A stretch of 64,000 bases of DNA from a virus: IMG/VR virus record IMGVR_UViG_3300046820_001050, positions 34,650 to 98,649 of that record. One strand, 5' to 3'. Below are positions 989 to 64,000 of this stretch, piece after piece. Positions within the stretch are counted from its first letter, which is position 1. Every line of letters starts with the position of its first letter. A program made the translations under genes and the position numbers. Below the pieces are notes generated by a model that saw only the letters and a list, made by a program, of their open reading frames with translations, was not told the origin of the DNA and did no database searches.

Positions 989-1000
989 GTCCCTTCTTAA

Positions 1001-1087: not shown

Positions 1088-1099
1088 AATTTTCTCCCA

Positions 1100-1663: not shown

Positions 1664-1696
1664 TTCTTTCTCCCTAAACTAATTATAGCACAGACA

Positions 1697-2530: not shown

Positions 2531-2531
2531 T

Positions 2532-32386: not shown

Positions 32387-33042
32387 TACGCCTCTTCCAG
32401 TGTTAGGGCGACATTCCAAAAGTCAAAGTTAAGACCGCTTCTTTTTACAACAGAATACTTAAAGTCTGAGAAAAATACTTCTACAATCTCATTATACTTA
32501 TTTATATTATTAAACCTGTTGTCTGCTTCAGTTAAATCTGTATCTTCAAAGTTTGTGTACTTATCATAAGCCAAGTAAACCCAAAAAGATCCTTTATGGT
32601 TTTCATACCAGTCAAGCAGTTCTACTCCGCCTGCTCCACCATCTGTAGTAAATTCTAATGGCTTTGGTCTTGATGGTGATGATTCCATGTCTGCATTTCC
32701 ACTGGTATTAAAGTCTGCCTTGGTGTCATATGCTCTTGATGGCAGCATATCCCAAGAAACAGATATGTTTAATTTATCTGCAATGTGGTATGACCTCATA
32801 CGTCCATTGATCATTCTTTCACGTTTTTCAATTCTAACGGGAGTAAAGTCTATCTCTGATCTATTATCATCAGAGAGTATTAGAAAGTCTCTAGTATTGG
32901 CTGCAGAGCCTGCATATGCCCCTACCTCGTACCCGTCTGGGACGTAAAAACCATTAACCTTTGTTCCAGGGTTGTCTGCAAATAGCATTGCTTGTGGTCT
33001 TGAATATTTTTTTCTTCCAGACATATATGTATTAGTTGCCAT
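32386..33042 (-). CDS. Distal tail protein-like
   Basis: Directly follows the TMP; RMINGRMR, ends LTLEEA. Confidence 0.6.
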   Translation of the reverse strand: MATNTYMSGRKKYSRPQAMLFADNPGTKVNGFYVPDGYEVGAYAGSAANTRDFLILSDDNRSEIDFTPVRIEKRERMINGRMRSYHIADKLNISVSWDMLPSRAYDTKADFNTSGNADMESSPSRPKPLEFTTDGGAGGVELLDWYENHKGSFWVYLAYDKYTNFEDTDLTEADNRFNNINKYNEIVEVFFSDFKYSVVKRSGLNFDFWNVALTLEEA

Positions 33043-36000: not shown

Positions 36001-39000
36001 GATTGAGCAAGGGCTCGCTTTGTTGCTGCATCCATATCAAGCATTGCATTGATTCTATCCCACTCGTCCCTGGTTTTTCCAAGAACTCTTAGTCCTTCAA
36101 TTTGCTTGTCGATACTATCCTGCAATAATTTATTTGTATAGTTAAGAGCATCAATTCTTTCTTGAAGTGGTTCAATAGAATTTTCTTCAATATTCCAAAT
36201 TTTATCTTCAAGATCTCTAATCTTACGTAATGCGGCTTCACGCAGTTCTTCTTTTTTGTATATTTCATCTTGCTTATCCTGAATCTGCTTTAATATTTCA
36301 AGTCTACGTGGATCAGTTTCCATACGATAAATTGCTTGTGCATTTTGGAATTGTTTTTCACTTATCTGATCCTGAGTCAATCCGCTTTGTGGCCCTACAA
36401 GACTACCAAGTGCATTTTTTCTTGCCTGCTCCAATGCATCTGATTGACCTGATGCAAACTGTGAGGCGCTTGTTGCTCTCATATCTTGTGCTGCTTGGGC
36501 TGCTGCTGAAATATCACCTTGAGTCAAGGCATCAGCAAGACCAAGTTGTTGCTTCTGCTGATCAAGAATATTTTGATTTATTTCTTGAACCTTTGAAAGC
36601 GCTTCTGCTTGCTCGTCGTATCTCTTGTTAACTTCATCTGCTGCATGATTTATAATTTCAAGATCATTTGAAAGCATTGTATTTTCATCTTGAATCTTCT
36701 TTATTGCACGGTCACCAAAGAAAGGATTCATTTCTAGATCACGGTTTAGGTCATTAATCTCTTCGTTTAAATCTTCTATTGGTCTTGTGTATGATTCTTC
36801 AATTACTCTTTGACCATCTTCAATTTCATCATTTAGTTCTGCAATTCTTCTTTGGAATGGAGCAATCTGTCCTTCAAGATCTCTGATTTGTCTTTGATTG
36901 CCCTTTAGTTGCATTGCCTCTGGGCCTGTACGAATAAGTGCTTCCTGTGCTGCAAAGAGTTCGTCTACAACTTCTCTTCCCTTATCGCTGGCTTCTTTAA
37001 GTGCTCCCTTGTTAAGCAAAATCTGAATATCAATAATTTTTCTTGCTTCAATGTTATTTAGAGTCTCTGCAATTTCTTTAGCCTCTAACTTTCCATCCTT
37101 CAAATCTTCTACTAAGAATTTTGCTAACTCTGGGTCTCCAAGAACTGCATCAATCTGATCTGTGCTATACCCAAGTTCCTTCATCTTAGAAACTAGTTCT
37201 GGCATTTTTGCATAAAGACCAAACTCCTCGTTTGCCTTTATTGCTTTATTTAAAACTGCTTGGCGCTCAAGTTCTGTATTTGCTGTCTTTATATTATTAA
37301 TATATGTTTGCCATGCTGGTGATGATGTATCTATTGCTCCCGCTGCAATTGCTGCTGCTTGACCTGTGTCTGCAACAACCTCTAATGCTTTTGCTGCAGA
37401 TAGTCCGCTACCAACAAGAATAGCATATGCCTTAGTTTGATTCTCTATATCCTTTATTATTGTTGCATTAGCAATGTCAAAGTTACCAAGGTCTTTTGCT
37501 TTGATTGCTTTGTCTGTTGCTTCGCCAAGTGGACCAAGACCAGATATTGAATCCTTTGATCTTGGCTTTCCTTTTTCAAAGGTAAACATAGCCTTATCTT
37601 TTGGTAGTGCTGCAACCTTTGCAAAATCTTCTGCAGACATAGATGCAACAGCATCTCTTAGTTCTTGACCAACACCAAGTTTTAGAAGCCTATGTTGTAT
37701 ACCATCAAATAAAGTAAAAGCATTCTTCTTTGTTTTATTATCTTTTAATAATTCTAGTAATGATTTTACTGGTGTGAGGGCATTAAATGCATTGTCTCTT
37801 ACATTCTTTAAAGCCATTGCCAATGGTGCTAAGAATGCTAGTGGATCATTTCCTGCTCCGCTGCCACCACCTGAATCTGCATTGCCTGAAGAGTTAACAA
37901 CAACCTCTCCATTTTCACCAATATAAGTTTTTGTGCTTGCAGCAACTCGGTCAACAAGTGTTTCATCTGCATTTTTTGCATTATACATAAGCGATGTTAA
38001 GTGGCCTGTAGCAGTTGTATCTCCGCCTGTAGCCTTTTGTGCATACTTGCTATAAAATGCCAACCTGGATGCTTCATCAGCAAACACTGTTTCCATTATA
38101 GTTTTAAATTTAGAGACTGCTTCTTTTTGTGCAAAGTCTGGAAGTTTATCAAAGTCTTTCCATTTGCTAAATAATACTTCAAGGTTGCTTTCTGTCATAC
38201 CCTTCATACCCTTGCCCTTGCCATTAACAAAGTAATCAAGGATAATAGCCTTATCTATTTTCTTTGGCATTCCATCAATTGTTTTTAAATCTTGAGAAAG
38301 TTTGACAAGCATATCATAACCAATTGGTTTGCCATCAGAATCTTTCATGCTAAGGAATGCTTCCATATTAATTTCATGACCGTCTAATACTCTTAGAACT
38401 GCCAGGGTTTCACCTATTTCATTAAATGTTTTTTTATCACTATTAATAATTTTTGTAGAAATCGTGGCTGCAGCATCGCCATCTTTAAACGCTGAAAAGT
38501 ATTCTAAAATTTCTATAGTTGGTCCAGCACCCTGTCTTTGCATTCCAACCTTTAGTGTTTGACTAAGTTCTGGTAATTTTCCTTCAAACATAAGTAAGAA
38601 GGTGTCCATTTGGTCTGGATTTAAAACCTTGTTTGCTAGAAGAAGCGACATGTCAACTTCAAAATCTTGAGCAGCCATTTGGGTCTTAAATCCTCCCTTT
38701 GTTGCATTTCCGTCACCTAATTTCAAGGTCTTGTCGCTTAACTTAGCCAATTTTTCAAGGGTTGTTCCTACTGATGTTTCAAATCCTGTACCTTTATAGG
38801 TATCTTTAACTTTAGATTTTAGGGAAGAAAAGTAGGCGGTTTCTTTTTTGTTTGATTTAAAACTATCTACATTCTGAATATTGTCTTTAAATCTTTTCTT
38901 TTCTCTGTCCATTTGAACAACGACTGCATTATTTGCAACCACCATATCGTCTGCCATTTTTTCTTCTAATCCAGCAATCTTTTCTTTTATTTTTAAAAGT

Positions 39001-42000
39001 TTTTCTGCATTTGAAGTGGACTCTAACTCTTTTTCTAATAACTGAATTTGTTTTCTATATTGAAACTCTGTTGCATCAGCCTGTGCTTTTGCAACAGAAA
39101 TATTGTTTACAGAAAGTGCTGCAAGTTGTGCAGCCTCTGTTCTACCACCATCCATACTCATTGGTGAGTAGTTTTTATTCATTGCATCGATAACTCTATC
39201 AGATCTCTTGTTTGTCTCCTGAACAATTTGCATTCTAACCTTTAGAGGATTATTTGCTAGATCTTCTCCGTTTACACCAATAACTTCTCTTAAGTTTCCA
39301 ACAATATCAGCAGTGTACTTTCTGCTGCCTAGTTGTACTCCTATTTGATCAGCAATGTCTGCTGCTTGTGCTGCATCTAAAACTCCATCTGAAACATATG
39401 TTGATAATTGTAAAGCAAAATCTTTTGCTGCTGCCTGTGAACCAGATTTGGACATTTCTTTTACAAAGCCATCCACCATTTTCTTTCCAATTTCTGACCT
39501 TAAGAATGTATCTCCAAAGCCAGTTCCTGCTCGTTCAACATCGTTGTATGAACCAAATGATCCCTTCTTTCTTACTTCGTCCATTGCACGAGAAGCGCCA
39601 ACCTTGTCTGTTATCTTTCCTATCTCGTCCATCTTATTAGTTGTTGCTGATATTGAATCTACATACTGGGCTTGCTTTTTAGCAGAATTTTCAAAATGCT
39701 TATTTAATAAAAACAGTCCTGCACCTGCTGCTACTATTGCAGTTGTAACCCAGCCAGTTGGCCCCATACCCGCAAGCATTGGAGCCATACCTGCAACTGT
39801 TGAAGCGCCCAGCATTGCCATACCGCCCGATGTATTGCCAGACATCATCATTGCAGATCCAGCCATGCCAAGCCCCATAGCCAATCCGCCTGATGCTACT
39901 CCAACTTTTTGTGCACGATAGTCTCTTTTTTCTTTAATCTTATTTTTTCGTGCTTGTGCATCTTGTTTTTGTGACTGCTTAAGATTGTTTAGTTTTCTTC
40001 TTTCATCTTCGTCTAATGCTTCTTGATAATACCTTGCCTGATTATAGTTAAGATTTGAAAGATGTTGCTGCTTTCTAAATCTGGCTCTTGCTTCATTAGT
40101 CTGTCTTCTGCGGTCTGCATCATCTAACTTTTGATTTCTTACTTGTTGGGTTACGGATTCTGATTTACCCTTAGCAAGTTTTGCTTCATCCTTTGCAACC
40201 TTTCTTAATACTTTATCAATTTCATCTTGGCTATATCCCTTTGCACGAAGATCTGCTGCTACTCTACCCTGGCGAACTGTAGGGTTTGGCATTGGTCTGT
40301 CTGCTTGAGAATCAAATCTTGGATCACCCGTAGCCATTCCAGGCATAGAGAATCCAGGTACAGATGCAAAACCTCTACGGAAATTTGCAAACTGTCTTCT
40401 AGTTACAACTGTTTGGTTTGGTGTTAATGATGTTCCTCTGCTATCTTTACGACTTCCGCTGCTTGGAACTGCTCCAGCCTTTGCTGCAGTAGTATTAGAA
40501 TCTGTTAATTTTTCTGTTCTTATTACTCTTTTGGTTTTTGGATCAATTGTCATCTTGGTCTCACTACCGTCAGGGTTTACTAAGACTGGCAATGTTTTAT
40601 CTGATCCACTCTTAAGGTTGAACTCTGGTTGAGGAGAACTATAGTACTTTGTGCCAAATCTATCATCGAGAACAGCCAAGACTCCCTTAGCAGTTTTTGC
40701 TGGTCCTAGTTTTGGGAACCTCTTTGGCTTTCTTCCTGCTTTTGCTTCACTGTCTTTGTATTGCTGCGCTAGAACATCAAGTTCTGCTGCTTTTTGGACT
40801 AACCTTGCTTCTCTTTCATTTGTTGGATGACCACCCTTTGACATGAACTCAGCAGCCTCAGTATAAATTCCAATCTGATTTTTTGGAATAAACGGGTGTC
40901 CATTTTTTGCACTCCAGTCTAAAATCTTGCCGTGTCTAACTGAAGCGTTCATAAACTTATTTAATATACCTAAATCAAACATAGCAGAGCCTGTTAACCA
41001 TTTAGCAGGGCCCTTACCAGGTTTTCCAGTTTTACTTATATGGGATAGTTCAGTTCTTAGTGCAGTATCAATTTCTTTTGGTTTGTATCCCAAAGCAACA
41101 AGTTTTTCTCTTACTGGCTTTAATGGATCATTTTTTCCTGCAATTTTATTTTGTTCTGTAAAGGCCTTTTCTTCAGCATCTAAAACTTGATACAACTCAG
41201 AATCTCTAGGAACGTTTCCTCTCCAAGATCCACTTTCTTTTCCTACAGGGCTAACTGCATTTCTTAATCTAGAGGCAGCATTAATTTTTTTATCGCTTAC
41301 AAATTCTCCATCTTTTTGTCTTACACCCATCTGATAAAAAACTTTTTGCATTACTTCTTCATATGTTCTTCCATAAACTCTTCCAGCATCTAAAGTTTTT
41401 TTGTCGTGATAAAGTCCATCTTTGTAAATAAGTTCCTCGTCAACAAACTTAAGCATATTGCTTTGGCTCAGATAATCTTCTAAGGTCTGTGGACCAATTA
41501 CTGCTGGTGTCCTTGCATTCATTTTTTGTTTTGCAATTGCATCTAGTACTCTTCTTTGTTGCTCTTCAGGTAGTTGCTTAAAATCTCTAGCAGCCTGAGC
41601 AGCAAGACCTTTTCTTAGTGTTGATATCTGTCTTTGTGATTCTGGAATATTTTTAAACTTTTCAAAATCTCCAAGTGCAAGTTTTTTAACACCTTCTGAT
41701 GCACGAGCATGAACTGGATGAAGTTCATCCCAGTGTACTTTTGCTCCAGCCTTAAGTCTTTCAAGCATGTTGTTGTAAACAACTTGCTCTTCTGGATTTA
41801 AATCCCCACTCCAAGACTTAATAAGTCTTTCTAGTTTTGGAATAGAACTATTAATCTCTCCTTTAATTGCATCATCATATTGTTTTGGTGTCATGCTTGC
41901 TGCAACACCTGATGTTTCTTGTGCAAAGAACTTCTTTGCGCCTCCCTTTACACCAAGCAAGTTAACAACTGCTTGCTCCTCCATGCTTGGCATTGCTTTT

Positions 42001-44915
42001 GAGAAATCTCTAAAACCAGATGCTCTATCAAACACTCCAGCCGTTCCAACATCTGCTAACACATTTCCAGACAAATTTGGTTGCTGTAAATCTTTGTCTC
42101 CTCTTAATGTTGAAGCAACTAACTGCTTAACCATATCAGACTTGCTAAACTTGCCATCCATTGCTGCTATTCTTGGATCATACGGTGATTCAATTACTAT
42201 AAACTTTCTTTGACCTGATGGATCTGTTGGGTCAATCATTGTTCTAATACTTTGTTTTGGTGCAACTAGACCATGAACCTGTCTTGCAATTTCAGTAGCA
42301 CGAACTTCTGCTAACGCAGTCTTTTCATCTATTGTTGGTTTTACTACAACAATCTTTCCATTAGGCTTTCTGTATATACCGCCAACTCCTTGAACAGGGA
42401 AACTTCTTCCAGAAAATGGCTGAAGCAGTGTCCCAAAGTTTGATGGAGGCAAAGTTCCAAATCTTCCGACACTTACTTGATCACTAATTTTTTCTACTAT
42501 CTGCCTTGACTGAGATGTTTTATCGCTTGACTTTGGCATTCCAACAAATACTGGACCAGTTGGAACTTCTGGATGAGGCTCGTTATATCCTTGTCTTGCA
42601 TCATCTCTTCTTCTATACTTTGCTTGCTGTGCTTTTCTAACTGCTGCTGGTCCATCAGATAGTGGTATTCCTCTACCTGGTCCACCAGGAAGTCTTCCAG
42701 CCATAAAACCTGGAACCTTATCCTGGAACATGGCACTAATAAGTCCTCTATATTTGTTTGTTGTATCTGTAGGAATAACTGCTTCTCCTGGAGAAAGCAT
42801 TGCTGGAACAACATCTCCTGCACCCTTTGGACCTGGAACACTCAGGATTCCCTCTGCATACTTTTTAACTGGTGGCAACTTGCTTACTGCACGTCGTGCA
42901 CCTGGTACTCCACCTGCAAACAATGAAGGATTCTGTGCAGCCATAGTTCTCATTTGTGTGCTAAGAGCATGATAGGATGCAGCAAGATTATTTACGGAAA
43001 CCTTTTCAACATTAAATACTTCGATCAATCTTGTATGTGTTTGGTGTAACTGTTGAGAGGCAGCAGCAGATTCTATCTGCTCTTGAGTCATGTAGTTAAA
43101 TCCTGCACCCATTACAGATGTCTGTCCATTTAACTTTGCTATTCCTCCACGCAGCATTGCAAAGAATTTAATAACATTTGCTACGCCGTTTGCAAGTAAA
43201 CCAAATGTCATAAGAAGTACTGGTCCAAGACCTGCAACAACTCCAACTATGACAGCAACTACCTTTTTAGTTTGATCGCTTAATCCATTAAACTTTTCAA
43301 ATATGTTACCAAAAAACTTAACAACTGGAGTTAGTGCTTCAAGAAACGCTTTACCTAATGGCATGATCTCTTGCTTGAACTGTTCTATTGCTGCCTGAAA
43401 CTTAACCCCTACTGAGTCTTCAATCTTCTTCATTTCTCGCTCAGACAAGACTGCTAATTCTTCTATAGTAGATCCTGCTAAGTCAAGTGCTCTTGATGCC
43501 TGAGTTCCATCTTTTGCAACATTTTGGAACAAGGTAGAAAGACGAGCAAACTGGAACTTTCCAAACATTTGCTCAATTGCTCTTGCACGATTAAGTGGAT
43601 CGAGTGTATCAAGTGCTTGAGCAAATCCAATAACTGTTGCCTTGATATCTCCCTGGTTTGCTTCTACAATTCCTTTAACATTGATACCAAGATCTGCAAG
43701 GAATCCTGCTGCCTTCTTGGATGGGTTAATTAGGGATGCTAGACCAGACTTTAATGCGTTAGCACCTTCAGATGCGTTGATTCCACCTTCTTTCATTGCA
43801 GTCATAAAGAATGCAAGGTCTTCAACGTTTCCGCCAAGTTGTTTAATTACTGGTGCTGCTTTTGGAATAGCGATTGTTAAATCTTCAATTGAAAGAACGG
43901 TCTGGTTTTCTACTGCGTTAAGGAAGTCAATCTTTTTTGCAAGTTCTTCGCTAGACAAACCAAAAGCATTTTGTAAAGACATAGTTGTTTCAAGTGCTTG
44001 CTGTTGTTCTACTTGTCCAAGCACTGCTAGTTTAGTTGCAGTTTCAACCTGAGTATTTAATGCTGCTCCTGCAAAACCTGCTGCTGCTGCTGTTCCAGCC
44101 ATCTCCATTGTTTTTGTAACAGAGACTCCGTACTTTGTATATTCAGTTGCTAACTTTCTAATGTTTTCAACTGCAGCATTTACTTCTGCATCATTTGTAA
44201 CTGCTGTTCCATACACACGCTTAAACTTAACAATCTCTGTTTCAAGTTCTCTAAATGCTTTTGCAGCAGATGCACCAAATAAAGCAAGTGGCATTGTAAG
44301 ACCAACCATCAACTGGCGACCTGCCCACTGAGTATTCTTACCGAAGTTCAGGAGTTGTGTTGATCCCTGCTTTAGTAATTGATTTAAGAACTGCTGTCTT
44401 TGTGCAGCATACTGAATTCTTGCTCCAAGTTCAGTAAATCTTCCACTAGCCATCTGAAGATTTTTTGGCATAATGCGAATAGCATCCATAAAGCCAGCAT
44501 TGGCTTTGTTCATCTGGATGTATTGTGCTTGTAAAGCCTTTACTCTGTCTCGTCTTGCACGGTTGATAATTTCTCGCTCTTGTGCAAAAGCCCTGCCCAT
44601 AACACGAGTGTTGGCAGTTGCTGCTGCCATTGTGTATCTGTAGTATTCACGAAGCGAAAGTTTATTTTTTTCTAAAGCAGATGTAAATGCTAGTGTACTT
44701 CCTGCAACCTTAACTTGGCTTGCAGAGAACTTTCCTGTTGCTCCAAGAGACTGAAGCAGTTGTGCGTTTAAACCTTTTTGTGCATTTGCAGCAGCCAGGT
44801 TGCCCTCAGCAAGTGATTGATGAAACTTACTGAGGCCTGCCTGAAGTTGTCGAAGTTGTGCAAGGGCGGCAGCCGTATTAAAATTAATATTTATATTAGA
44901 GTTTACATCTGCCAA
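33042..44915 (-). CDS. Tape measure protein (3957 aa) with inserted cargo domains
   Basis: TP901-type TMP core (EGGINASEGANALKSGL), TM segments, long coiled coils; follows the tail chaperones; TTG start with GGGGG SD. Confidence 0.9.
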   Translation of the reverse strand: MADVNSNININFNTAAALAQLRQLQAGLSKFHQSLAEGNLAAANAQKGLNAQLLQSLGATGKFSASQVKVAGSTLAFTSALEKNKLSLREYYRYTMAAATANTRVMGRAFAQEREIINRARRDRVKALQAQYIQMNKANAGFMDAIRIMPKNLQMASGRFTELGARIQYAAQRQQFLNQLLKQGSTQLLNFGKNTQWAGRQLMVGLTMPLALFGASAAKAFRELETEIVKFKRVYGTAVTNDAEVNAAVENIRKLATEYTKYGVSVTKTMEMAGTAAAAGFAGAALNTQVETATKLAVLGQVEQQQALETTMSLQNAFGLSSEELAKKIDFLNAVENQTVLSIEDLTIAIPKAAPVIKQLGGNVEDLAFFMTAMKEGGINASEGANALKSGLASLINPSKKAAGFLADLGINVKGIVEANQGDIKATVIGFAQALDTLDPLNRARAIEQMFGKFQFARLSTLFQNVAKDGTQASRALDLAGSTIEELAVLSEREMKKIEDSVGVKFQAAIEQFKQEIMPLGKAFLEALTPVVKFFGNIFEKFNGLSDQTKKVVAVIVGVVAGLGPVLLMTFGLLANGVANVIKFFAMLRGGIAKLNGQTSVMGAGFNYMTQEQIESAAASQQLHQTHTRLIEVFNVEKVSVNNLAASYHALSTQMRTMAAQNPSLFAGGVPGARRAVSKLPPVKKYAEGILSVPGPKGAGDVVPAMLSPGEAVIPTDTTNKYRGLISAMFQDKVPGFMAGRLPGGPGRGIPLSDGPAAVRKAQQAKYRRRDDARQGYNEPHPEVPTGPVFVGMPKSSDKTSQSRQIVEKISDQVSVGRFGTLPPSNFGTLLQPFSGRSFPVQGVGGIYRKPNGKIVVVKPTIDEKTALAEVRATEIARQVHGLVAPKQSIRTMIDPTDPSGQRKFIVIESPYDPRIAAMDGKFSKSDMVKQLVASTLRGDKDLQQPNLSGNVLADVGTAGVFDRASGFRDFSKAMPSMEEQAVVNLLGVKGGAKKFFAQETSGVAASMTPKQYDDAIKGEINSSIPKLERLIKSWSGDLNPEEQVVYNNMLERLKAGAKVHWDELHPVHARASEGVKKLALGDFEKFKNIPESQRQISTLRKGLAAQAARDFKQLPEEQQRRVLDAIAKQKMNARTPAVIGPQTLEDYLSQSNMLKFVDEELIYKDGLYHDKKTLDAGRVYGRTYEEVMQKVFYQMGVRQKDGEFVSDKKINAASRLRNAVSPVGKESGSWRGNVPRDSELYQVLDAEEKAFTEQNKIAGKNDPLKPVREKLVALGYKPKEIDTALRTELSHISKTGKPGKGPAKWLTGSAMFDLGILNKFMNASVRHGKILDWSAKNGHPFIPKNQIGIYTEAAEFMSKGGHPTNEREARLVQKAAELDVLAQQYKDSEAKAGRKPKRFPKLGPAKTAKGVLAVLDDRFGTKYYSSPQPEFNLKSGSDKTLPVLVNPDGSETKMTIDPKTKRVIRTEKLTDSNTTAAKAGAVPSSGSRKDSRGTSLTPNQTVVTRRQFANFRRGFASVPGFSMPGMATGDPRFDSQADRPMPNPTVRQGRVAADLRAKGYSQDEIDKVLRKVAKDEAKLAKGKSESVTQQVRNQKLDDADRRRQTNEARARFRKQQHLSNLNYNQARYYQEALDEDERRKLNNLKQSQKQDAQARKNKIKEKRDYRAQKVGVASGGLAMGLGMAGSAMMMSGNTSGGMAMLGASTVAGMAPMLAGMGPTGWVTTAIVAAGAGLFLLNKHFENSAKKQAQYVDSISATTNKMDEIGKITDKVGASRAMDEVRKKGSFGSYNDVERAGTGFGDTFLRSEIGKKMVDGFVKEMSKSGSQAAAKDFALQLSTYVSDGVLDAAQAADIADQIGVQLGSRKYTADIVGNLREVIGVNGEDLANNPLKVRMQIVQETNKRSDRVIDAMNKNYSPMSMDGGRTEAAQLAALSVNNISVAKAQADATEFQYRKQIQLLEKELESTSNAEKLLKIKEKIAGLEEKMADDMVVANNAVVVQMDREKKRFKDNIQNVDSFKSNKKETAYFSSLKSKVKDTYKGTGFETSVGTTLEKLAKLSDKTLKLGDGNATKGGFKTQMAAQDFEVDMSLLLANKVLNPDQMDTFLLMFEGKLPELSQTLKVGMQRQGAGPTIEILEYFSAFKDGDAAATISTKIINSDKKTFNEIGETLAVLRVLDGHEINMEAFLSMKDSDGKPIGYDMLVKLSQDLKTIDGMPKKIDKAIILDYFVNGKGKGMKGMTESNLEVLFSKWKDFDKLPDFAQKEAVSKFKTIMETVFADEASRLAFYSKYAQKATGGDTTATGHLTSLMYNAKNADETLVDRVAASTKTYIGENGEVVVNSSGNADSGGGSGAGNDPLAFLAPLAMALKNVRDNAFNALTPVKSLLELLKDNKTKKNAFTLFDGIQHRLLKLGVGQELRDAVASMSAEDFAKVAALPKDKAMFTFEKGKPRSKDSISGLGPLGEATDKAIKAKDLGNFDIANATIIKDIENQTKAYAILVGSGLSAAKALEVVADTGQAAAIAAGAIDTSSPAWQTYINNIKTANTELERQAVLNKAIKANEEFGLYAKMPELVSKMKELGYSTDQIDAVLGDPELAKFLVEDLKDGKLEAKEIAETLNNIEARKIIDIQILLNKGALKEASDKGREVVDELFAAQEALIRTGPEAMQLKGNQRQIRDLEGQIAPFQRRIAELNDEIEDGQRVIEESYTRPIEDLNEEINDLNRDLEMNPFFGDRAIKKIQDENTMLSNDLEIINHAADEVNKRYDEQAEALSKVQEINQNILDQQKQQLGLADALTQGDISAAAQAAQDMRATSASQFASGQSDALEQARKNALGSLVGPQSGLTQDQISEKQFQNAQAIYRMETDPRRLEILKQIQDKQDEIYKKEELREAALRKIRDLEDKIWNIEENSIEPLQERIDALNYTNKLLQDSIDKQIEGLRVLGKTRDEWDRINAMLDMDAATKRALAQSADLAALLSAAETLNMTWADILAKMAQYANGIPGAVQNAMNQIGGVGAEAYVAPQETQATISEAEKFDNTVQALDAAIAAYESAVASGNMYRVRNAGIALAAIQSAYDATLPEVDPNAKPGGGLTGKYGMLYQADGGFIPKGTDTVPAMLTPGEFVVRKSAVDQYGQDFLNDINVQRFSTGGTVGAPHGLGMSSMGSRSTNTQDERATSLFDKKIWEKTANFFSLPSIAKTALDIAKYGGIPQMFAAKAMGAETKSSLKDNLNAALAVAPVPGLKAVKPAINKLGSIIPKTIKESLGKNGIDIFNKILNKANAVTTTKPNTSLVEEKLTTNTNTVSSKESNMDDWGSWDSDNWVMPKQPWDTRLGMKIQGMNPIRNKIANAVYSPRRFFENLSPKISQAWRLGEKEPTINNSFLSTKLGSLVAAKVAPTVADLGKALNPKRLIDTPLDERSYLQRSMVSGENGKKTASYGNAFKNIASDITSPITSRFNKVKDSATNFLIGKYEKTNFGRNMSLSRQIADVGGDNADELVKHYKTQAILDSIPGGLGALIQMKRGIHRHGKLIEDLPSPLERFLASKFDGAKTPMNAYGPGLYSATSPATSKQFFNTFGDNQYGIDLTPKAMFKVLTSKGFIDPPKMAKYKENYIKTTGTQPRDMGNINADTTDPFMQSLMRDGYIGYRHGDAYTNWGVGNIPGMRLKFKDGPDLKAVVKDGKTVFVPRTDIPKIVEPNLNNTQKIGTNKSLIAKASALAAAITGLSLFKTSEARADEYFPPKPKSAYDSDNKPTGSPTSRYWGELERLHQQSPLGFDTKGKPIFNDAGKDPWGGTEIPGLPFNGKVANFSDYFHQLAEQPKKSISNPMDVDKSLRPLVGSGASMGGSGNGFYGLQMFSKGGLVPKYFAEGGYASGTDTVPAMLTPGEFVMSRYAVQSHGADTMRAINSGQSAGDSVYNYSISVNVKSDANPDEIARVVMTQIKGIDSQKLRGNRL

Positions 44916-54514: not shown

Positions 54515-57500
54515 TTAGACAGCATCAACAGTAGTTTGTTGCAAAGTTATACCTTTATAGACATTATATTCATATCCGTTTACCGTAAACACCTTTTCGG
54601 TATCAATAATAATCTTGTTAGTTCCAGTATAACTCTTGTAAACTGTCTCTGGATTTACGCCATAATAACTACTTGAGGCCAAAACTAATACCCCGTCCCA
54701 AATAAAGGCTGAAGACTTCCAATAATCCCATTCAAGAGTAAGTGGGCTTGCATACTTCACAGCAAACCATGGGCGAATCTCTACCTGCTGGACCTCCTGA
54801 AGGTTTGTAGACTGGTAGTATGAAATAGTATTAAACGTAATAGGTCCATTAAGATTTATTGATCCAACTCTATTTTTAAAGTCTAAAATATTTGGAAAAG
54901 ATATTCCCAAGAATCCCCACTCTTTTACTGTAATAACTGGCTCTTTTACAAGTTTGCCATTCCAATAAAAAGATATTCCATCTTCTAATCTTCCAGTTTT
55001 TGCATTAATTGCATAGATCTTTGCTCTTTCTCCACTTGGGTGAATTGCAACCATATAAAACTTTATGTGAGTATTCCTTGATTGTATCTCAAATATTTCT
55101 GTTGATCCATATGGAAATGCATCTTGGTCATATCTTATGGCTGTTTGTAAGGCTATAACTTTGTAGTTTTCTGCCATTGTTTTATTTATTGGAATAGAAA
55201 GACCACGGTTAATTAGTGGGTCATAAACACCCTTTAACTCTATCCCAGTATATCTTGTTAGATATAGGTATGGAGAACTACCCTTATAAATCGTAAAAGG
55301 ATTTCTTTCTTTATAATCATAATAGAAACCAGATTTTTTATATGGATATATCTCATTGCCAAACCTTGTTCCAATAGGGTTTGGAGATGTTGCGTTAAAT
55401 GCTTGAGATGCGTACTCAAGGTTTCTAACCTTAATTCTATTTTTCAATATTCCCTTGACATTAAAATCTAAGTGTGTGACTATTGCAAGGTCCAGAGTTC
55501 TTGCATTTGATGGTGGGTAAATAATCATGTTATTAACTACTTCATATTTTGTGTTAATCCAGTTTTCTCCTGGGACAACAAAAGAATCGTTTGATGGTTT
55601 TTCACTATTAACAAAATTTGACTCTGGCAGATTTGTTCCATTTTCAATATATTGAAAAGTAATATATGATTTTACCAAAGCATTTGACGTATCATACTTA
55701 TAATTTTTGTAGGCTCTATTTTTTAAATCATCATAATTTAAATATCCAGTAAATAACTGATTATCTAATGATGAGTATGTTCTCTGAGTTGGCACATTGT
55801 ATTGGTCATACAATTGTTCATATGTCCAAGAACCAGTTTGCTCTTCTTCAACAAAGACTGATGGGGCTGGGTAATTTATATTAAACTGAATTAGGTCTAA
55901 ATCATATACATCTTTGCCTTTTTCATCTTTAATGTATTGGGCAAAATATGTAAGAGGAATGTAGTCTTCCCAATAACCTTGAATGTCAATGTCTAAAGTG
56001 TAGTTGTCAAAATATGAAGATGGTGATAAAGTATAACTTGCTGTATGTCCTTGGAAACTTTCTACTGGATAAGAATTTACACTGCCTGAGTCAACAATTT
56101 CGTCCCACTCTGCAGGATTTGTTCCAAAATAATTATCTGTTGAGTTGTATTCTACATCAATTGTGTCTGCATATAAATCAAAAACATTTTCATCGCCTAC
56201 AGGGATTCCTTTTTCATTAAACAGGTACTCAATTTTTTTGTGATTTCTTGCCGTACAAAAACCAACCTTATAAATTTTTCCAGAGAATGTTTCTGTAAGA
56301 TTTGATTTTCCACCTATATAGAACTTAAGGGTGTTTACATTTCCAAAGAATGATGCAACATTTCCTCCAAAGTATTTAGAAACTTTATCTATATCTATTC
56401 CTACAGAAAACATCTCATTTACAGTAATTCCAGCAAGCGTATTTTCGTTAGACCATGAAAATTTTGCAAGTGTTATTGGCTCAGTTGATCCAGACTTTAA
56501 GATATAAACTACATCGTTACTAAGCGTAGATATTTCAAAGTAATCTGAAGAGTTCTGAGACTCTATTCTGAAAAGTATTTGCTTGGTTGTAGGCTCTTGT
56601 AAAAACTTAAACGATCCATAAAAGGATCTAATCTTTTGATTTAAAAAATTTAAATTATCAAAATACATGTAACCGTTTTGTGCTGGGTTAAAAGAAAAAA
56701 ACTTTTCAGTTTCATTTTGCATTGTTCCTAATTGAGAATATAAACTATGAATATCAGAAGATGCTAGTACTATTTCTGGCAAAGAGTATTCTGGTGTACA
56801 AAGCATGTTATTTTCTACGGCAAGGTTATCAATTACTGCCTGACTCCACTTTCCAATATTTGGATAAGAGTAATTGTTTGTATAATCTGCAAATGGATAA
56901 TCTATATAAACTGATGATCCACTATATGCTTGATTAATTCCCTCTGGAAATTCAACTCCTTGTCCATATATAAATCTTTTCTTTGCTAATACTAGTGGTA
57001 CTTGATAAGTATAAATTGCAACGCAGTCAAGTTCTACTGGAGACACATCTTCGTATGCATAAAACCCAATCCAGTCTTGATCTTTTCCAAGTGAATTAAG
57101 TTTTGATGGTAGTTGTAATTCTGAAGTTATATAGTTAAGAGATATAACTTCTTCGCCATTTATAAGCATAGATGCATAGTTTTCTGAAATACGAACATGC
57201 ATTAACATTGGCCTTGTCCATTCACCAACATAATAAGAACCAGAAATATTTCCAATCTTTAAAGTAAGGAATGGCCCATCAACATAAATACCATCATCAG
57301 AACCTATTGGACCAATAATTCTTTTAATAGTAGACGAGTCAGAGTTGATTCTAAGCCAAGCCTCTAACGTGTACTCTTTGTATTGACCACCTTCAGATAA
57401 AAACCCTAGCCCTGGAATGATTAAAGAGGGGTCTCCGTTGTTTGGCAAAAGTTTTGTAAGATTTGATGCCCCGTATACAATTGGAATTCCAGTGTTCTTT

Positions 57501-58225
57501 GCCATAAGGCTGTTGTCTTTGACTAAGTAATATCCTTTGTTGTCTTGTAGACCATAAGCGTTTGCCTCAATTCCAAAATATGGACTTAATGCTATGTCTG
57601 ATGGTATTGATATTTTTTGAACACCTAAAGATGATGAATTAAATTCTTCACACCACTGACCAGCGGTGATTCCATTAACAAGAAATTGATAATCATCTAC
57701 AGTTGATGCTCCGCCAATATAGTTGATCTTTAATACAATTCTAAATTCTGTATTATCTTCTGGGATGTCAAATGTCTCAGAGATAAAAAACCATTTATCT
57801 TTAACAGATGTTGTGTATGACTTAAGTCTTTGAATTGTACTTCCAGATGTTGTGTCATAGTACTCATAGCCAATTTCAAAACTAGAAGCATAGGCGCTTA
57901 TTGAATTAAAAAATGCACCAATTGAGAATGTGGACAGGTTGTCATTTAGAGATGAAAAGTTAACTATATTGTTGCTTATGCAAACAATTTGTCCAAAGTC
58001 ATTTTCTGTAAGAGTTCCTGTAATTTTTACTGTTTGACTACCAATAAAAGGCTCGTCAGTCGTAATGTGGTTCACTGCCGTTCCATTGCTTATTGTCCAA
58101 GAAGTTACATTTCTGTCAGCCTCATCAACTAAACTAATGTAATCTGCAACGTCATCTAATGCCCAAAGAGCGATGGGATGTTCTGCATATATTTTTTCTG
58201 CATAGAGGTTGGATGAACTAGACAT
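54515..58225 (-). CDS. Large virion protein with LamG/concanavalin-like domains
   Basis: HPIALWALD N-terminus and YTLEAWLRI; beta-rich and aromatic, 1236 aa. Confidence 0.6.
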   Translation of the reverse strand: MSSSSNLYAEKIYAEHPIALWALDDVADYISLVDEADRNVTSWTISNGTAVNHITTDEPFIGSQTVKITGTLTENDFGQIVCISNNIVNFSSLNDNLSTFSIGAFFNSISAYASSFEIGYEYYDTTSGSTIQRLKSYTTSVKDKWFFISETFDIPEDNTEFRIVLKINYIGGASTVDDYQFLVNGITAGQWCEEFNSSSLGVQKISIPSDIALSPYFGIEANAYGLQDNKGYYLVKDNSLMAKNTGIPIVYGASNLTKLLPNNGDPSLIIPGLGFLSEGGQYKEYTLEAWLRINSDSSTIKRIIGPIGSDDGIYVDGPFLTLKIGNISGSYYVGEWTRPMLMHVRISENYASMLINGEEVISLNYITSELQLPSKLNSLGKDQDWIGFYAYEDVSPVELDCVAIYTYQVPLVLAKKRFIYGQGVEFPEGINQAYSGSSVYIDYPFADYTNNYSYPNIGKWSQAVIDNLAVENNMLCTPEYSLPEIVLASSDIHSLYSQLGTMQNETEKFFSFNPAQNGYMYFDNLNFLNQKIRSFYGSFKFLQEPTTKQILFRIESQNSSDYFEISTLSNDVVYILKSGSTEPITLAKFSWSNENTLAGITVNEMFSVGIDIDKVSKYFGGNVASFFGNVNTLKFYIGGKSNLTETFSGKIYKVGFCTARNHKKIEYLFNEKGIPVGDENVFDLYADTIDVEYNSTDNYFGTNPAEWDEIVDSGSVNSYPVESFQGHTASYTLSPSSYFDNYTLDIDIQGYWEDYIPLTYFAQYIKDEKGKDVYDLDLIQFNINYPAPSVFVEEEQTGSWTYEQLYDQYNVPTQRTYSSLDNQLFTGYLNYDDLKNRAYKNYKYDTSNALVKSYITFQYIENGTNLPESNFVNSEKPSNDSFVVPGENWINTKYEVVNNMIIYPPSNARTLDLAIVTHLDFNVKGILKNRIKVRNLEYASQAFNATSPNPIGTRFGNEIYPYKKSGFYYDYKERNPFTIYKGSSPYLYLTRYTGIELKGVYDPLINRGLSIPINKTMAENYKVIALQTAIRYDQDAFPYGSTEIFEIQSRNTHIKFYMVAIHPSGERAKIYAINAKTGRLEDGISFYWNGKLVKEPVITVKEWGFLGISFPNILDFKNRVGSINLNGPITFNTISYYQSTNLQEVQQVEIRPWFAVKYASPLTLEWDYWKSSAFIWDGVLVLASSSYYGVNPETVYKSYTGTNKIIIDTEKVFTVNGYEYNVYKGITLQQTTVDAV

Positions 58226-60373: not shown

Positions 60374-61087
60374 TTACTTGTATGTTTTCTTTTGCCAAAA
60401 CTTAAGCCTATATCCATGCTGAAAACTAGACCTAACTTTTATTCTTTGCTCTTCTATTTTCTTTAAATCAAAACTTTTGTCTACTTCCATTTCCCATTCT
60501 TCTCTCTTAAAAGGAAAAATTTGAGACATTGGAGTTCCTTGCTTTATGGTTCCCTTAAAATTTTTCTTTACCAAGAAAGAAAGATGACCATCAGTAAAAT
60601 AAGTATCTGTATCGACTACTGCGTCAATTGCTTTTAGTGGTGATACATTTTGGTGCATAGGACTTGTAAATAAAGTGCTATATCCTTCTTCAGTTTGAAC
60701 CATCCATGTTGGATGTATTCTTAATATTTTATCACAATAAATTTCTCTATCAATTGGAAGATGTGAAACTTGCTCTATTCCGTGTTCGCTTATTAGTGCT
60801 GCCTGATATTTATTCATATGTGCAGGTAATTGAAGTTTAAAATCTCCGTCAGTTGTATCTATATATATATCTACTGGAACTTTTAAAATATAACCCATTG
60901 ACATGGCATCAAAGAATGCTTGACATTTTTTTACAGTGAGTTTTAGTTGTCCTTTTTCAGGTGTGTCTTCTCCTACAACTCCTGGCTGTTCTTTGTACCA
61001 TGCAGGAATATTTTTTGTTCCTGGCTCTGGCAGTGGTGCTACATTTGCTAAAGGAGGATACATCTGTAAAAATTTAATGATATTCAT
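60374..61087 (-). CDS. Conserved phage protein; paralog of 3197..3961
   Basis: IPAWYK, TVKKCQAFFDAMSMGY, VVDTD and GTPMSQIFPFKREEW. Confidence 0.65.
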   Translation of the reverse strand: MNIIKFLQMYPPLANVAPLPEPGTKNIPAWYKEQPGVVGEDTPEKGQLKLTVKKCQAFFDAMSMGYILKVPVDIYIDTTDGDFKLQLPAHMNKYQAALISEHGIEQVSHLPIDREIYCDKILRIHPTWMVQTEEGYSTLFTSPMHQNVSPLKAIDAVVDTDTYFTDGHLSFLVKKNFKGTIKQGTPMSQIFPFKREEWEMEVDKSFDLKKIEEQRIKVRSSFQHGYRLKFWQKKTYK

Positions 61088-61169: not shown

Positions 61170-62723
61170 TTAGAAATTAGTTTCTATTTGATAACCATCA
61201 TAAACTAGGAAGCGGTCTGTATAAAACATATCATAAGGCTCACAGTTAATTGAAATAACTTCGTGAGGAGTGTATGATATTATCAACTCAGTGATAGGAA
61301 CCCAAGAATTCGTGTCTGCAGACCATAGTTCGTCTGTCTCCAAAAGATCTTCAGAGGCAATCATGCTAGAAACATTATCTCTTTTTGCAAGCATATAGTG
61401 AGTTCCTGAGTAATATTCGCCATTTATTCCAACAGAAACCTGTGCTGTTGATGTTCCTATTGCAACGATTGTTGTCTCTTTGTCAGGAATAGCAACAACA
61501 TTTGTTGGAGTTTCTGTCCATGACTGAACATCTTGAACTGTAAAGTTTGATCCTAGTCCAGGGATTTCTGTAGAAACAAGAACATCTCCGACCTTAAGAT
61601 TTTTTGCTTGAGTAAGCCCATCTACAGTCAAAACTAATGTGTCTATGTTTACAGAGAAGTCAAAACTTCCTCCTGGAGAAAATCCGAATGCAGGAACAAA
61701 TCCAAATGCTCCGAATGCACCGAATGCTCCGAATGCACCGAATGGTGCAAAACCAAATGCTCCGAATGCACCGAATGCTCCGAATGCACCGAATGGTGCA
61801 AAACCAAATGCTCCGAATGCTCCGAATGCTCCGAATGGTGCGAATGAGAACACTGTTGTAACATTTCCTGATGCACCTGATGTTCCAGAACTTCCGTTTG
61901 CATTGTCTGCACGAACTGTGTATGTCTGTGAACTTCCCTGTTCTTGAGATACGTTTACAGATGTTGACCCTGTATTTCCAGACTTACCGTCAGATGCTGC
62001 CCAGAAATAATTGGTGATAGCCTTACCGCCATTATTTGGTGCTGACCATGAGACAGAGTCAGTTCCTGCTGATGGTGATGATGCGGAAGGTGCACCTGGA
62101 GTTGCAGGTACTGTAGTTGCAGTAATAGCATTTGAAGCAGCAGATGTTGCTGAGTTTCCATTAGCATTAGTTGCTACTACTGTAAAAGTATAAGATGTTC
62201 CTGATTGAAGTCCTTGTACTGTAATTGGAAAACCATCAGTTCCAGTATAGCCACCAGAAGATGCTGTAGCAGTATAAACACTTACTGCTTTACCACCTGT
62301 AGCCCCTGCAGTATAACTAACTGTTGCTGCGCCGTTATTAAATGACCTACCTGTTCCAACATCTGTAGCAGTTACGCCAACTGGTGTTTGAGGAACAGTA
62401 GTAACTGTTACAGAATTAGATCCAGCAGATGTTGGGCCAACTCCTGAAGCGTTTGTTCCTGTTACTGTAAATGTTGGAGTTGCTCCTGAAGAAATTCCAG
62501 TTACAACAATTGGAGATGATGATCCTGTTGCTGATTGTCCAGTGCTTGCTGTTACAGTAAATGATGTTGCAGCGTTTGGACCTGTAGGAGTAAATGTCAC
62601 TGATACAGCACCATTGTTAAATGGTCTTGCTGTTCCAACATCTGTTGCTGTACCTATTGTTGGTGCGTATGGAGTTAGGAAGTCATTTGCTCCCTGACTC
62701 ATTCTACCTGCTTGCTTTGACAT
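61170..62723 (-). CDS. Putative tail-fibre adhesin: three FN3 domains, (GAF)n repeat, C-terminal Hint domain
   Basis: FN3 motifs (YTFTVVATNANG); FGAFGAF repeats; Hint signatures SVNIDTLV...G...AKNLKVGD and VISINCEPYDMFYTDRFLVYD. Confidence 0.75.
   Translation of the reverse strand: MSKQAGRMSQGANDFLTPYAPTIGTATDVGTARPFNNGAVSVTFTPTGPNAATSFTVTASTGQSATGSSSPIVVTGISSGATPTFTVTGTNASGVGPTSAGSNSVTVTTVPQTPVGVTATDVGTGRSFNNGAATVSYTAGATGGKAVSVYTATASSGGYTGTDGFPITVQGLQSGTSYTFTVVATNANGNSATSAASNAITATTVPATPGAPSASSPSAGTDSVSWSAPNNGGKAITNYFWAASDGKSGNTGSTSVNVSQEQGSSQTYTVRADNANGSSGTSGASGNVTTVFSFAPFGAFGAFGAFGFAPFGAFGAFGAFGAFGFAPFGAFGAFGAFGAFGFVPAFGFSPGGSFDFSVNIDTLVLTVDGLTQAKNLKVGDVLVSTEIPGLGSNFTVQDVQSWTETPTNVVAIPDKETTIVAIGTSTAQVSVGINGEYYSGTHYMLAKRDNVSSMIASEDLLETDELWSADTNSWVPITELIISYTPHEVISINCEPYDMFYTDRFLVYDGYQIETNF
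61676..61850. repeat. 9-bp tandem repeats nested in a 51-bp higher-order repeat, encoding FAP(FGA)nFG
   Basis: ccgaatgc(t/a) units in three blocks separated by ggtgcaaaacca. Confidence 0.9.
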
Positions 62724-62753: not shown

Positions 62754-64000
62754 TTATGCTGACAAGTCTCCGAAGACTAACCATCCTGCTGAAGTCTTCA
62801 TTGCTGTTACTACTGAGTTAGTTGTTCTAAAGTTACGTCCTGGTGTTCCAACAACTCCGTTTGTTGCTTCAAAACGTGCTCCAGTTCCTGACTCTTGATA
62901 GAAATCAATTGACTGTCCAGTTGAGTATCCTGATGCTGGAAGAGTAATTACTACTGCTCCAGTTAGTGGGATCAACTGATCTGCCCGACCTGTTGCAAGT
63001 GAGTGTGCACCTGCTGCGATTGCAGTTGGAATTGTTGTAATTGAAGGAACTCCAGCCTTTGTCTGTGTACCGTCTGAGAAGACGATTCCAGATGATGCTG
63101 TTACAGCACCTGAGAATGTTGGTGCATCTGCAACTGCAATTGTTGAACCAGACTTTGTAATGTTTGTACCAGCAGTTACTGCTTCAGAAGCGTTGAACTG
63201 TGCGTAGTTAACATTTGTAGTTCCGATTGTAATTGTTCCAGTTGTGCTCAAGATGTATCCCTTAGAGCCATTTGTTGATCCAGATGTTACGAATACGAAG
63301 TCACCTGTCGCCAATTCTCCTGAAGGATTGTTATCTGCATCTACTGCACGAGTTACAACCCACTTTGCTGATGCTCCACCTACGTTAGTAATTGTGTAAA
63401 TACCGTTTTGTGTTGCGTCTGTTTGTGCACGAAGAAGGATTCTGTTACCAACAGAAACTGATGCTCCGTCAATTGTTCCGATTGCGCCATTGGCAGATGC
63501 TGTAAGTGTTGCACCTACACCGTTTGTACCATTGTCGTAAACTCCAGCAAGATTTCCTGTTGATGCTGCAACTACTGGCTGATGGAAGTTAATTCCTGCT
63601 GCAAGTCCATCAACGTACTGCTTTGTTGCTGCATGAAGATCTGATGTTGGGGCACCTGATAGTGTAAGTGCTCCTGTAAGTGTTCCGCCAGCAAGATTTA
63701 ACTTAGCATTAAGTGCTGTTTGTGTAGCAGTTGAAACTGGCTTGTCTGCATCTGCTGTGTTGCTAACATTTGCAAGGCCAACCATTGACTTTGTGATACC
63801 TGAAACTGTTCCAGTAAATGTTGGATTTGCGAGAGGTGCCTTAAGGTCAAGTGCTGTTTGTGTTGCTGTAGAGACTGGCTTGTTGGCGTCAGATGTATTG
63901 TCTACATTTGCAAGACCAACTGAAGACTTTGTTAGTGCTGATACTGCAGTTGTTACTGCTCCGTCAGCATATGTCTTTGTAGCAAGTGCTGCTGTGTCTG
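62754..64000 (-). CDS. Tail fibre protein, C-terminal part (start lies beyond the window)
   Basis: Frame is open to the window edge; two VGLANV.NT.DA.KPVSTATQTAL repeats, HAATKQYVD, QNGIY, C-terminal WLVFGDLSA. Confidence 0.85.
   Translation of the reverse strand, partial: DTAALATKTYADGAVTTAVSALTKSSVGLANVDNTSDANKPVSTATQTALDLKAPLANPTFTGTVSGITKSMVGLANVSNTADADKPVSTATQTALNAKLNLAGGTLTGALTLSGAPTSDLHAATKQYVDGLAAGINFHQPVVAASTGNLAGVYDNGTNGVGATLTASANGAIGTIDGASVSVGNRILLRAQTDATQNGIYTITNVGGASAKWVVTRAVDADNNPSGELATGDFVFVTSGSTNGSKGYILSTTGTITIGTTNVNYAQFNASEAVTAGTNITKSGSTIAVADAPTFSGAVTASSGIVFSDGTQTKAGVPSITTIPTAIAAGAHSLATGRADQLIPLTGAVVITLPASGYSTGQSIDFYQESGTGARFEATNGVVGTPGRNFRTTNSVVTAMKTSAGWLVFGDLSA

Follow-up and report, generated by a model that had tools for sequence, protein, structure and literature searches.

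The last gene of a tail-fibre cluster in an uncultured virus raises the question of what a domain of the kind known from inteins and Hedgehog proteins does at the C-terminus of a phage protein. The DNA analyzed here (the window) comprised 64,000 nucleotides, positions 34,650 to 98,649 of the IMG/VR record IMGVR_UViG_3300046820_001050, and represented the final 64 kb of this 98.6-kb contig. The gene in question (positions 61170-62723, minus strand, stop codon included) encodes a protein of 517 residues, P0001. Our results suggest that P0001 ends in a Hint domain of the bacterial intein-like (BIL) type, an autoprocessing domain from a new family that occurs essentially in viruses, used in a new setting, as a predicted cleavable C-terminal cap.

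Domain organization of P0001

P0001 consisted of an N-terminal motif (MSKQAGRMSQGANDFL), three fibronectin type III (FN3) domains, a 65-residue repeat, a Hint domain of 153 residues and a tail of eight residues. The features of the gene are listed below, with the evidence in brackets; FN3 boundaries are approximate and models were calculated with AlphaFold2 (AF2).

61170..62723, minus strand: whole gene P0001, 517 residues, final gene of the tail-fibre cluster (synteny across 80+80 related viral loci)
62664..62723, minus strand: N-terminal motif MSKQAGRMSQGANDFLTPYA, residues 1-20 (conservation in the family alignment)
62394..62663, minus strand: FN3 domain 1, residues ~21-110 (full-length AF2 model, pLDDT >90; profile matches to titin FN3)
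62109..62393, minus strand: FN3 domain 2, residues ~111-205 (Pfam fn3, E 2e-8, at residues 167-198; AF2)
61851..62108, minus strand: FN3 domain 3, residues ~206-291 (alignments, AF2 model)
61656..61850, minus strand: low-complexity aromatic repeat, residues 292-356 (FGA/FAP units; pLDDT 31-36)
61697..61837, no strand: DNA tandem repeat (51-nt unit, 2.8 copies, 97% identical)
61197..61655, minus strand: Hint domain, residues 357-509 (sequence profiles, AF2, Foldseek, family statistics)
61173..61196, minus strand: C-terminal tail GYQIETNF, eight residues (alignment; pLDDT <50 for residues 513-517)

A first-pass annotation of this DNA had proposed three FN3 domains, about 60 residues made almost only of F/G/A/P, and a Hint domain that starts with Ser as residue 1 and ends in LVYD. 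All of these elements were recovered. The FN3 domains were identified by Pfam fn3 (E 2e-8), by the family profile, which matched FN3 domains of titin and fibronectin at E 4e-40, and by the full-length AF2 model, in which three beta-sandwiches had pLDDT values above 90. The F/G/A/P stretch measured 65 residues (292-356), and the Hint domain was placed at the same coordinates by profiles, AF2 and Foldseek. FN3 domain 3 was the most conserved cargo domain of the family, and FN3 domain 2 was the one missing from relatives with two FN3 domains. In the N-terminal motif, K3, G6, S9, Q10, N13, D14, F15, L16 and P18 were nearly invariant in the family alignment, and variants in relatives read MAVNKxxGxxSQxxNDFL. 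This motif is possibly a docking peptide.

Fold and catalytic motifs of the Hint domain

The AF2 model of residues 340-517, calculated with an alignment of 77 sequences, had a pLDDT of 90.0 and a pTM of 0.84. The comparison with Hint structures that the first-pass annotation had called for gave a clear answer: Foldseek returned 47 matches in the PDB at E<=1e-3, and all of the matches listed were Hint domains (BIL, intein, Hedgehog or Vint), with TM values of up to 0.81 on the target. The top match was 6y75, the BIL2 domain of the Tetrahymena BUBL1 locus (5.5e-8), followed by 2lwy, a BIL domain of C. thermocellum (1.3e-6). The gp41-1, DnaB, NrdJ-1 and PolB1 inteins, the Hedgehog structures 1at0 and 6tyy, and Vint were also among the matches listed. 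A sequence profile of the domain alone matched the intein 9hth (1.1e-5) and the BIL domain 2lwy (1.4e-4) in the PDB. The single sequence (C-terminal 163 residues) had no Hint match in Pfam, PHROGs or the PDB, and therefore profile and fold evidence was needed for recognition of the domain. The Pfam Hint models PF01079, PF13403 (Hint_2), PF07591 (PT-HINT), PF14890 (Intein_splicing) and PF14623 (Vint) gave no match for P0001, and in its relatives Intein_splicing got no further than 17-29 bits, against a cutoff of 35.8, and PT-HINT no further than 19 bits, against 27.7. Since no Pfam Hint model reached its cutoff on the members tested, the viral domains form an unmodelled family of the superfamily. 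By its predicted structure, the C-terminal domain of P0001 is a genuine Hint superfamily fold.

The domain starts at F356|S357-VNIDT (S357 codon, 61653-61655) and closes with L-V-Y508-D509 (D509 codon, 61197-61199), after which GYQIETNF follows. Block A (S357-VNIDTLVLTVDG) aligned to C-LxxDTxVxxxxG with Ser357 as the position-1 nucleophile, and block B (S439-G-T-H442) aligned to TxxH. Blocks F and G read ISINCEPYDMFYTDRFLVY508-D509, in which Tyr-Asp replaces His-Asn. The fold, the block A nucleophile and block B are those of the HINT superfamily. Position +1 is Gly510 and position -1 is F356, the last residue of the repeat. Within the close subfamily, GYQ of the C-terminal tail was invariant.

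Distribution and residue statistics of the viral Hint family

An exhaustive search of 1.84 billion representatives yielded 96 relatives of the C-terminal domain of P0001, including the 77 used in the AF2 alignment. Relatives of the Hint domain were carried by 307 IMG/VR contigs, and sample names of the family indicate freshwater lakes. Only two contigs of metagenome-assembled genomes, probably phage DNA in bins, matched in 185,579 prokaryote species genomes; therefore, the family is essentially viral. Members from uncultured phages carried automatic names in UniProt/BFVD such as 'Hint domain containing protein', 'Fibronectin type III' and 'PASTA_pknB domain containing protein'. In front of the repeat, the cargo consisted of FN3 domains (two or three), of PASTA domains, as in P0033 (E 2e-15), or of Pro/Thr-rich (PT-rich) or Cys-rich regions.

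Residues were tabulated for 204 distinct full-length Hint domains (87 representatives in a separate table). Position 1 was Ser in 178 and Cys in 26, with no other residue found. Block B read (S/T)xxH in 181 of the 204, and the last residue was Asp or Asn in nearly all. The two ends were coupled: domains with Ser1 ended in His-Asp (81), Tyr-Asp (57) or Phe-Asp (26), whereas 23 of the 26 with Cys1 ended in His-Asn. Position +1 was most often Gly (about 75) or Ser (about 65) and otherwise varied (R, T, V, K or no residue at all), and the tail after the domain was mostly 3-8 residues long, in some cases a single residue. Lys was the commonest residue at position -1, in about half of the family, where P0001 has Phe. 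The catalytic residues were retained across the family at 25-70% identity. The most distant members (P0103, P0107 and P0112) read Cys1...THPF...VHN and were thus canonical at both ends, indicating that the viral family grades into ordinary Hint domains.

One member was located in a cultured phage. P0001, its C-terminal domain and a 1,236-residue neighbour (see Genomic context) found no match by tblastn in 50,697 phage records, and neither did the relative P0207; only one query, the PASTA-type relative P0024, reached Erwinia jumbo phages. In phage pEa_SNUABM_5, gp108 (YP_010302897.1), a 'putative tail fiber protein' of 477 residues encoded within a tail-fibre cluster, carries long collagen-like Gly-X-Y repeats and ends in ...QRG|C-IVFGSDVE...FTHEHPVLVKRD...VEPYDCYYVGDILVHN|T plus nine more residues. 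It aligned to the Hint family profile with an hhalign probability of 98.4% (E 6.6e-15). Since gp108 ends in the same Hint family, the Hint-capped fibre design is present in an isolated phage. It shares with P0001 the C-terminal position of the domain, the short tail (10 residues) and the tail-fibre cluster, but differs in having Cys1, THEH, a His-Asn end, Thr at +1 and collagen-like cargo; its phage is a jumbo myovirus, and the domain is unannotated in the record.

Two further arrangements were observed. The metagenomic protein P0090 (1,108 residues) carried two family Hint domains in tandem at its C-terminus (residues 767-925 and 949-1101). Some phage genomes encoded two Hint-capped proteins (L031/L045 on the single contig IMGVR_UViG_3300034066_000840; L118, L119, L131 and L134). 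One of the two was of the FN3 type; the other, of about 880-900 residues, started with VAEENIDNT..., had PT-rich linkers and was directly followed by a 2-oxoglutarate-Fe(II) (2OG-Fe(II)) oxygenase gene.

Exchange of C-terminal modules among orthologues

Orthologues were searched for with the FN3 part of P0001 alone (residues 1-290). Proteins 60-74% identical to P0001 shared the N-terminal motif and the aromatic repeat and differed at the C-terminus. Many of these FN3-repeat proteins ended in a Hint domain, either Ser1/Asp or Cys1/Asn. In P0188 (41.5 bits) and P0211 (49.3 bits; cutoff 22), a Peptidase_S74 domain came directly after the repeat, and P0211 was 61% identical to P0001 across FN3-FN3-repeat. 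About 30 orthologues ended in the repeat itself, for example P0114 (74% identical) and P0139 (63% over 366 residues), and a few were closed by a small Cys-rich cap. The Hint-less genes were intact at loci L144-L153, where 42-61 bp lay between the stop codon and the next gene, and no Hint open reading frame (ORF) was detected in any frame of these loci. In a FastTree phylogeny of the last FN3 domain (137 sequences, short and noisy), the presence or absence of Hint required at least 16 changes versus 30.6 for shuffled labels. P0001 itself gave no match to Peptidase_S74 (PF13884), and a search with P0211 for contigs of S74-capped orthologues returned only unrelated or partial matches. Because orthologues end in Hint, S74, a Cys-rich cap or the repeat, the Hint domain is a replaceable and dispensable C-terminal module. 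This interchange of Hint, S74 and no cap among orthologous FN3-repeat proteins is new here.

Peptidase_S74 ('chaperone of endosialidase') forms a helical, trimeric chaperone and cuts the chain at a conserved Ser of its own; its established role is to remove itself from phage fibres. The strongest argument that the Hint domain is shed, leaving a mature protein that ends in the repeat, is therefore that the S74 domain replacing it is an established self-cleaving fibre domain. S74 domains (endosialidase, T5 pb1; PF13884) resemble the Hint domain of P0001 in their C-terminal position and in its presumed role as a self-cleaving module of fibre proteins. However, their fold and chemistry are unrelated and they have no sequence similarity to Hint, so that they are functional analogues and not relatives. 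Judged from these comparisons, the aromatic repeat most likely forms the C-terminus of mature P0001. The same end, with Hint as a cleavable cap, had been put forward in the first-pass annotation and now gains strong comparative support from orthologues that end in the repeat or in S74.

The aromatic repeat

Residues 292-356 of P0001 were F, G, A or P nearly throughout, with rare S, V and D. AF2 gave a pLDDT of 31-36 over this region, which is predicted to be disordered. What the repeats of P0001 and its relatives had in common was an aromatic residue every 2-4 positions among small residues (F 25%, G 21%, A 18%, P 13%), a pattern that resembles the FG repeats of nucleoporins most. The 51-nt tandem units were 97% identical, therefore suggesting recent expansion at the DNA level.

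In P0001, GAF triplets continued for no more than three or four units before their phase was broken by GFAPF. Some relatives had up to 20 unbroken GAF triplets, and in others the Gly of every few triplets was replaced by Ser, Ala or Asn. The orthologous position was also occupied by FGFSP, FSVFGFSP or SFTPY (units of 5-8 residues), by FFPP or GPP, or by PT linkers, and GPP repeats preceded the Hint domain in P0027 and P0034. A survey of homologues for variable repeats in front of Hint, as recommended in the first-pass annotation, thus found that length and unit type differ among close relatives. The label "collagen-like", which had also been given to the repeat of P0001, was not supported, and a collagen-like triple helix does not fit this protein on account of the breaks in triplet phase every 3-4 units, the varied units of relatives (five-residue units; S, A or N at Gly positions) and the pLDDT of 31-36. 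A homotrimer prediction of residues 285-517 (three copies) scored 0.00 without controls and was counted neither way. At one locus (L115:2329-3087 and the next ORF), the FN3-repeat-Hint gene was split within the repeat. A frameshift in the tandem repeat is the likely cause, through sequencing error or real slippage.

Proposed processing and alternative explanations

The best explanation, which we consider somewhat probable, is an acyl shift at F356|S357 followed by ester hydrolysis and loss of the Hint domain. It builds on the fold, the conserved catalytic residues, the module interchange and the synteny. The gene product would be an accessory protein of the tail-fibre module, composed of the N-terminal motif, three FN3 domains, an FG-repeat-like tail and a self-processing Hint cap. 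Ser357 would attack the F356-S357 peptide bond (N-to-O acyl shift) with the assistance of the block-B His442, and the resulting ester would be resolved, most likely by water. The Hint domain and the eight-residue tail would then be shed, and the mature FN3 protein would end in the aromatic repeat. Hint would act as a transient C-terminal module that keeps or delivers the sticky C-terminus until assembly, as S74 does in other fibres. Apart from a tail that is mostly 3-8 residues long, the domain closes the protein, and therefore there is no real C-extein to splice; with Gly at +1 and a 'C-extein' of eight residues in P0001, canonical splicing is unlikely.

Several points weigh against this explanation. 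Self-cleavage is a prediction for every member of the family, and we infer the virion location of P0001 from gene order. The nucleophile is Ser, in general a slower one than Cys, and Tyr-Asp replaces the penultimate His and the terminal Asn. The GYQ of the tail and the terminal Asp are strongly conserved, and a simple N-terminal cut-and-discard leaves both unexplained; they might mean that a reaction takes place at the C-terminus or that some function is retained. In addition, we know of no Hint domains that act as folding or oligomerization chaperones. The conservation of Asp509 and GYQ therefore keeps alive three rival explanations, in which the Hint domain is a knob, transfers the ester or ligates the tail.

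In one of these, Hint remains part of the mature protein and forms a distal knob, structural or receptor-binding, that is catalytically silent or very slow. Its non-canonical ends (Ser1, Tyr-Asp, Gly at +1), the conserved GYQ tail, a family-specific insert with an invariant Trp402, and the well-folded, terminal domain of the AF2 model are all in agreement with this. However, a position-1 nucleophile in 204 of 204 domains and a block-B His in about 90% would not persist at 25% identity in a non-catalytic scaffold, and some orthologues have no Hint or have a known self-cleaving domain in its place, which makes a retained knob unlikely. A little less likely still is that Hint conjugates, the Ser357 ester being attacked by an amine or hydroxyl group that belongs to another molecule (a virion Lys or the host surface) to give a covalent C-terminal tether, in the manner of BIL2 with ubiquitin-like domains and of Hedgehog with cholesterol. 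Among solved structures, the fold of BIL2 from the Tetrahymena BUBL locus is the closest, and BIL2 makes Lys isopeptide conjugates without ATP (PMC8616854, section 2.4), and Lys is the commonest -1 residue of the family, although P0001 has Phe. On the other hand, an acceptor-recognition region is absent from P0001, with eight residues after Hint, no candidate acceptor was identified, and Hint-less orthologues in the same genomic slot and S74-capped ones would be unable to conjugate in this way. Ligation to a small molecule, an option of the first-pass annotation, is unsupported, since only eight residues follow Hint and no region resembling a sterol-recognition region was found. With the same low probability as conjugation in general, the phage Hint may be an ATP-free 'click' device that passes the Ser357 ester to a nucleophile of the virion or host envelope and anchors the FG-repeat adhesive tail covalently, the tail being possibly modified by co-located 2OG-Fe(II) oxygenases and other enzymes of the genomic island described below. 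If this were true, the Hint, S74 and Cys-rich modules would stand in for one another as the 'C-terminal warheads or caps' of an unrecognized class of fibre accessory proteins that carry a nucleoporin-like FG tail.

Splicing or ligation by the type A BIL route would require that Asp509 cyclises and that the Gly510 amine attacks the ester, giving the end ...F356-GYQIETNF. In its favour are the conserved terminal Asp/Asn, the invariant GYQ of the subfamily and the Ser at +1 in the HD|S subgroup. The first-pass statement that a Hint domain without terminal Asn cannot splice was too strong, as Asp and Gln at an intein end are able to cyclise (PMC4031507); by the account of Dassa 2004 and Aranko 2013 cited there, ligation is possible for BIL domains that lack a +1 nucleophile. 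Nevertheless, the +1 residue and the tail vary widely in the family, some tails having one residue, and the conservation of the tail may partly be that of the ribosome-binding site which serves the following gene in relatives. This route is improbable in our opinion. The least likely of the alternatives, and a very improbable one, is that (Gly-Ala-Phe)n forms a collagen-like or other trimeric fibre, with Hint as a registration or trimerization domain before its removal. The up to 20 unbroken GAF triplets of some relatives, GPP before Hint in P0027 and P0034, and collagen-like repeats further upstream of the Hint domain in Erwinia gp108 would fit, as would the replacement of Hint by S74 domains, which are trimerization chaperones. 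This reading conflicts with the broken triplet phase of P0001, the five-residue or FFPP units and the S, A or N at Gly positions of orthologues, the low pLDDT over the repeat, and the monomeric state of Hint in the matched solved structures.

Comparison with known systems

BIL domains (2lwy; BIL2, 6y75/6tmm) are among the closest known systems. They have the same fold, gave the best structural matches, and also occur in variable proteins with neither a homing endonuclease nor a +1 nucleophile. Self-cleavage rather than obligatory splicing is expected of them (PMC7765530). The Hint domain of P0001 differs from them in having Ser instead of Cys and Tyr-Asp instead of the His-Asn of type A, which is present in the Cys1 members of the viral family. 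The motif pattern of P0001 appears compatible with a type B BIL domain. Moreover, the viral Hint invariably lies at the very C-terminal end of its protein, after a low-complexity repeat, is encoded in phage tail-fibre clusters and scores below the Pfam Hint cutoffs.

Class 1 mini-inteins (gp41-1, DnaB, NrdJ-1, PolB1) share the fold and blocks A and B, and distant viral members have Cys1 and His-Asn in common with them. In contrast, the domain of P0001 has Tyr508-Asp509 instead of a penultimate His and terminal Asn, and Gly510 instead of Cys, Ser or Thr at +1; it is followed by eight residues rather than a functional C-extein and does not interrupt a conserved host protein. Hedgehog/Hog proteins (1at0, 6tyy; Foldseek E 2e-4 to 6e-4) have the same order of cargo and C-terminal Hint, and there an N-terminal cut gives the cargo a new C-terminus. 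P0001 differs in its Phe-Ser rather than Gly-Cys junction, in the absence of a sterol-recognition region and in its phage rather than eukaryotic origin, and no lipid acceptor is indicated.

Searches of the full-text literature on Hint or intein-like domains in phage fibres, virions and FN3 proteins returned terminase inteins and unrelated work only, and the design described here was not found. To our knowledge, the self-cleaving C-terminal modules of phage fibres have so far been of one kind, Peptidase_S74. Hint in the S74 slot ties intein/Hedgehog chemistry to the host-recognition hardware of phages, and it draws attention to an unusual Phe-Gly repeat, similar to those of nucleoporins, as the part with which a virion protein probably acts. 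The family-wide residue statistics, the coupling of Ser/Asp versus Cys/Asn, the PASTA cargo variants and the cultured Erwinia member are also new here. Hundreds of family members come from uncultured freshwater phages and at least one from a cultured Erwinia phage, and a natural Hint variant with Ser1 and terminal Asp beside Cys1/Asn relatives should be useful for mechanistic and protein-engineering work.

Genomic context

The contig carried a siphovirus-like gene set with genes for portal, prohead protease, major head protein, large terminase, family-B DNA polymerase, UvsX, helicase and primase. The tape-measure protein (33042-44915; PHROG tape-measure families, E 4.9e-97) had 3,957 residues, a length that would imply an exceptionally long non-contractile tail. 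The neighbours of the Hint gene were the following:

62754..63998, minus strand: upstream tail-fibre gene (PHROG tail fibre, E 2.5e-22; 5' end cut by the contig end)
60374..61087, minus strand: downstream conserved neighbour, phrog_7084, weak DUF6065 (PHROG/Pfam, synteny)
L002:8487-8993, L062:8458-9003 and L049:8392-8970: examples of an optional ORF in relatives (no Pfam match)

The PHROG tail-fibre match (E 2.5e-22) agrees with the earlier placement of the Hint gene directly after a tail-fibre gene, and orthologues of the upstream gene in relatives carry Mtd_N (PF18454, E 2.6e-13). The order of several Mtd_N-type tail-fibre genes, the Hint gene, the optional ORF, here 165-173 residues long, and phrog_7084 was kept in 80 related loci, and it continued with a class II ribonucleotide reductase, a 1,236-residue LamG-like protein, a 134-residue protein and the portal. 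Since the cargo of the family varies (FN3, PASTA, PT-rich, Cys-rich), P0001 fits a surface-binding accessory protein. The labels 'adhesin' and 'fibre tip' of the first-pass annotation were overstated, as their basis is synteny and the FN3/PASTA cargo. The optional ORF (165-190 residues, motif ...GSWFYYVFFENH...YFNDKYPSG) followed the Hint gene in close and distant relatives; it was absent from the window, where 82 bp separate the Hint gene and the next gene.

The phrog_7084 gene (60374-61087) was a paralogue of 3197-3961 (30% identical, E 4e-27, hhalign 100%), and its hhalign link to 3948-4607 was weak (52%). Both of these genes belong to an island located 57 kb from the Hint gene (window 317-4607). 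This island encoded 2OG-Fe(II) oxygenases at 317-988 (PF13640, E 1.7e-18) and 1100-1663, and families without assignment at 1697-2575, 2532-3197, 3197-3961 and 3948-4607. The idea that the neighbour families are all 2OG-Fe(II) oxygenases was rejected, as hhalign of these families against oxygenases showed no link. In many relatives (L105, L107, L109, L114-L119, L157 and L161-L163), homologues of the island genes came immediately after the FN3-repeat(-Hint) gene, and in some places they included runs of 5-6 consecutive oxygenase genes. The island enzymes may modify the Pro/aromatic repeat.

The gene for the 1,236-residue protein (54515-58225) was located between the ribonucleotide reductase and portal genes in all relatives, and its product had a weak Laminin_G_3 match and no PHROG match.

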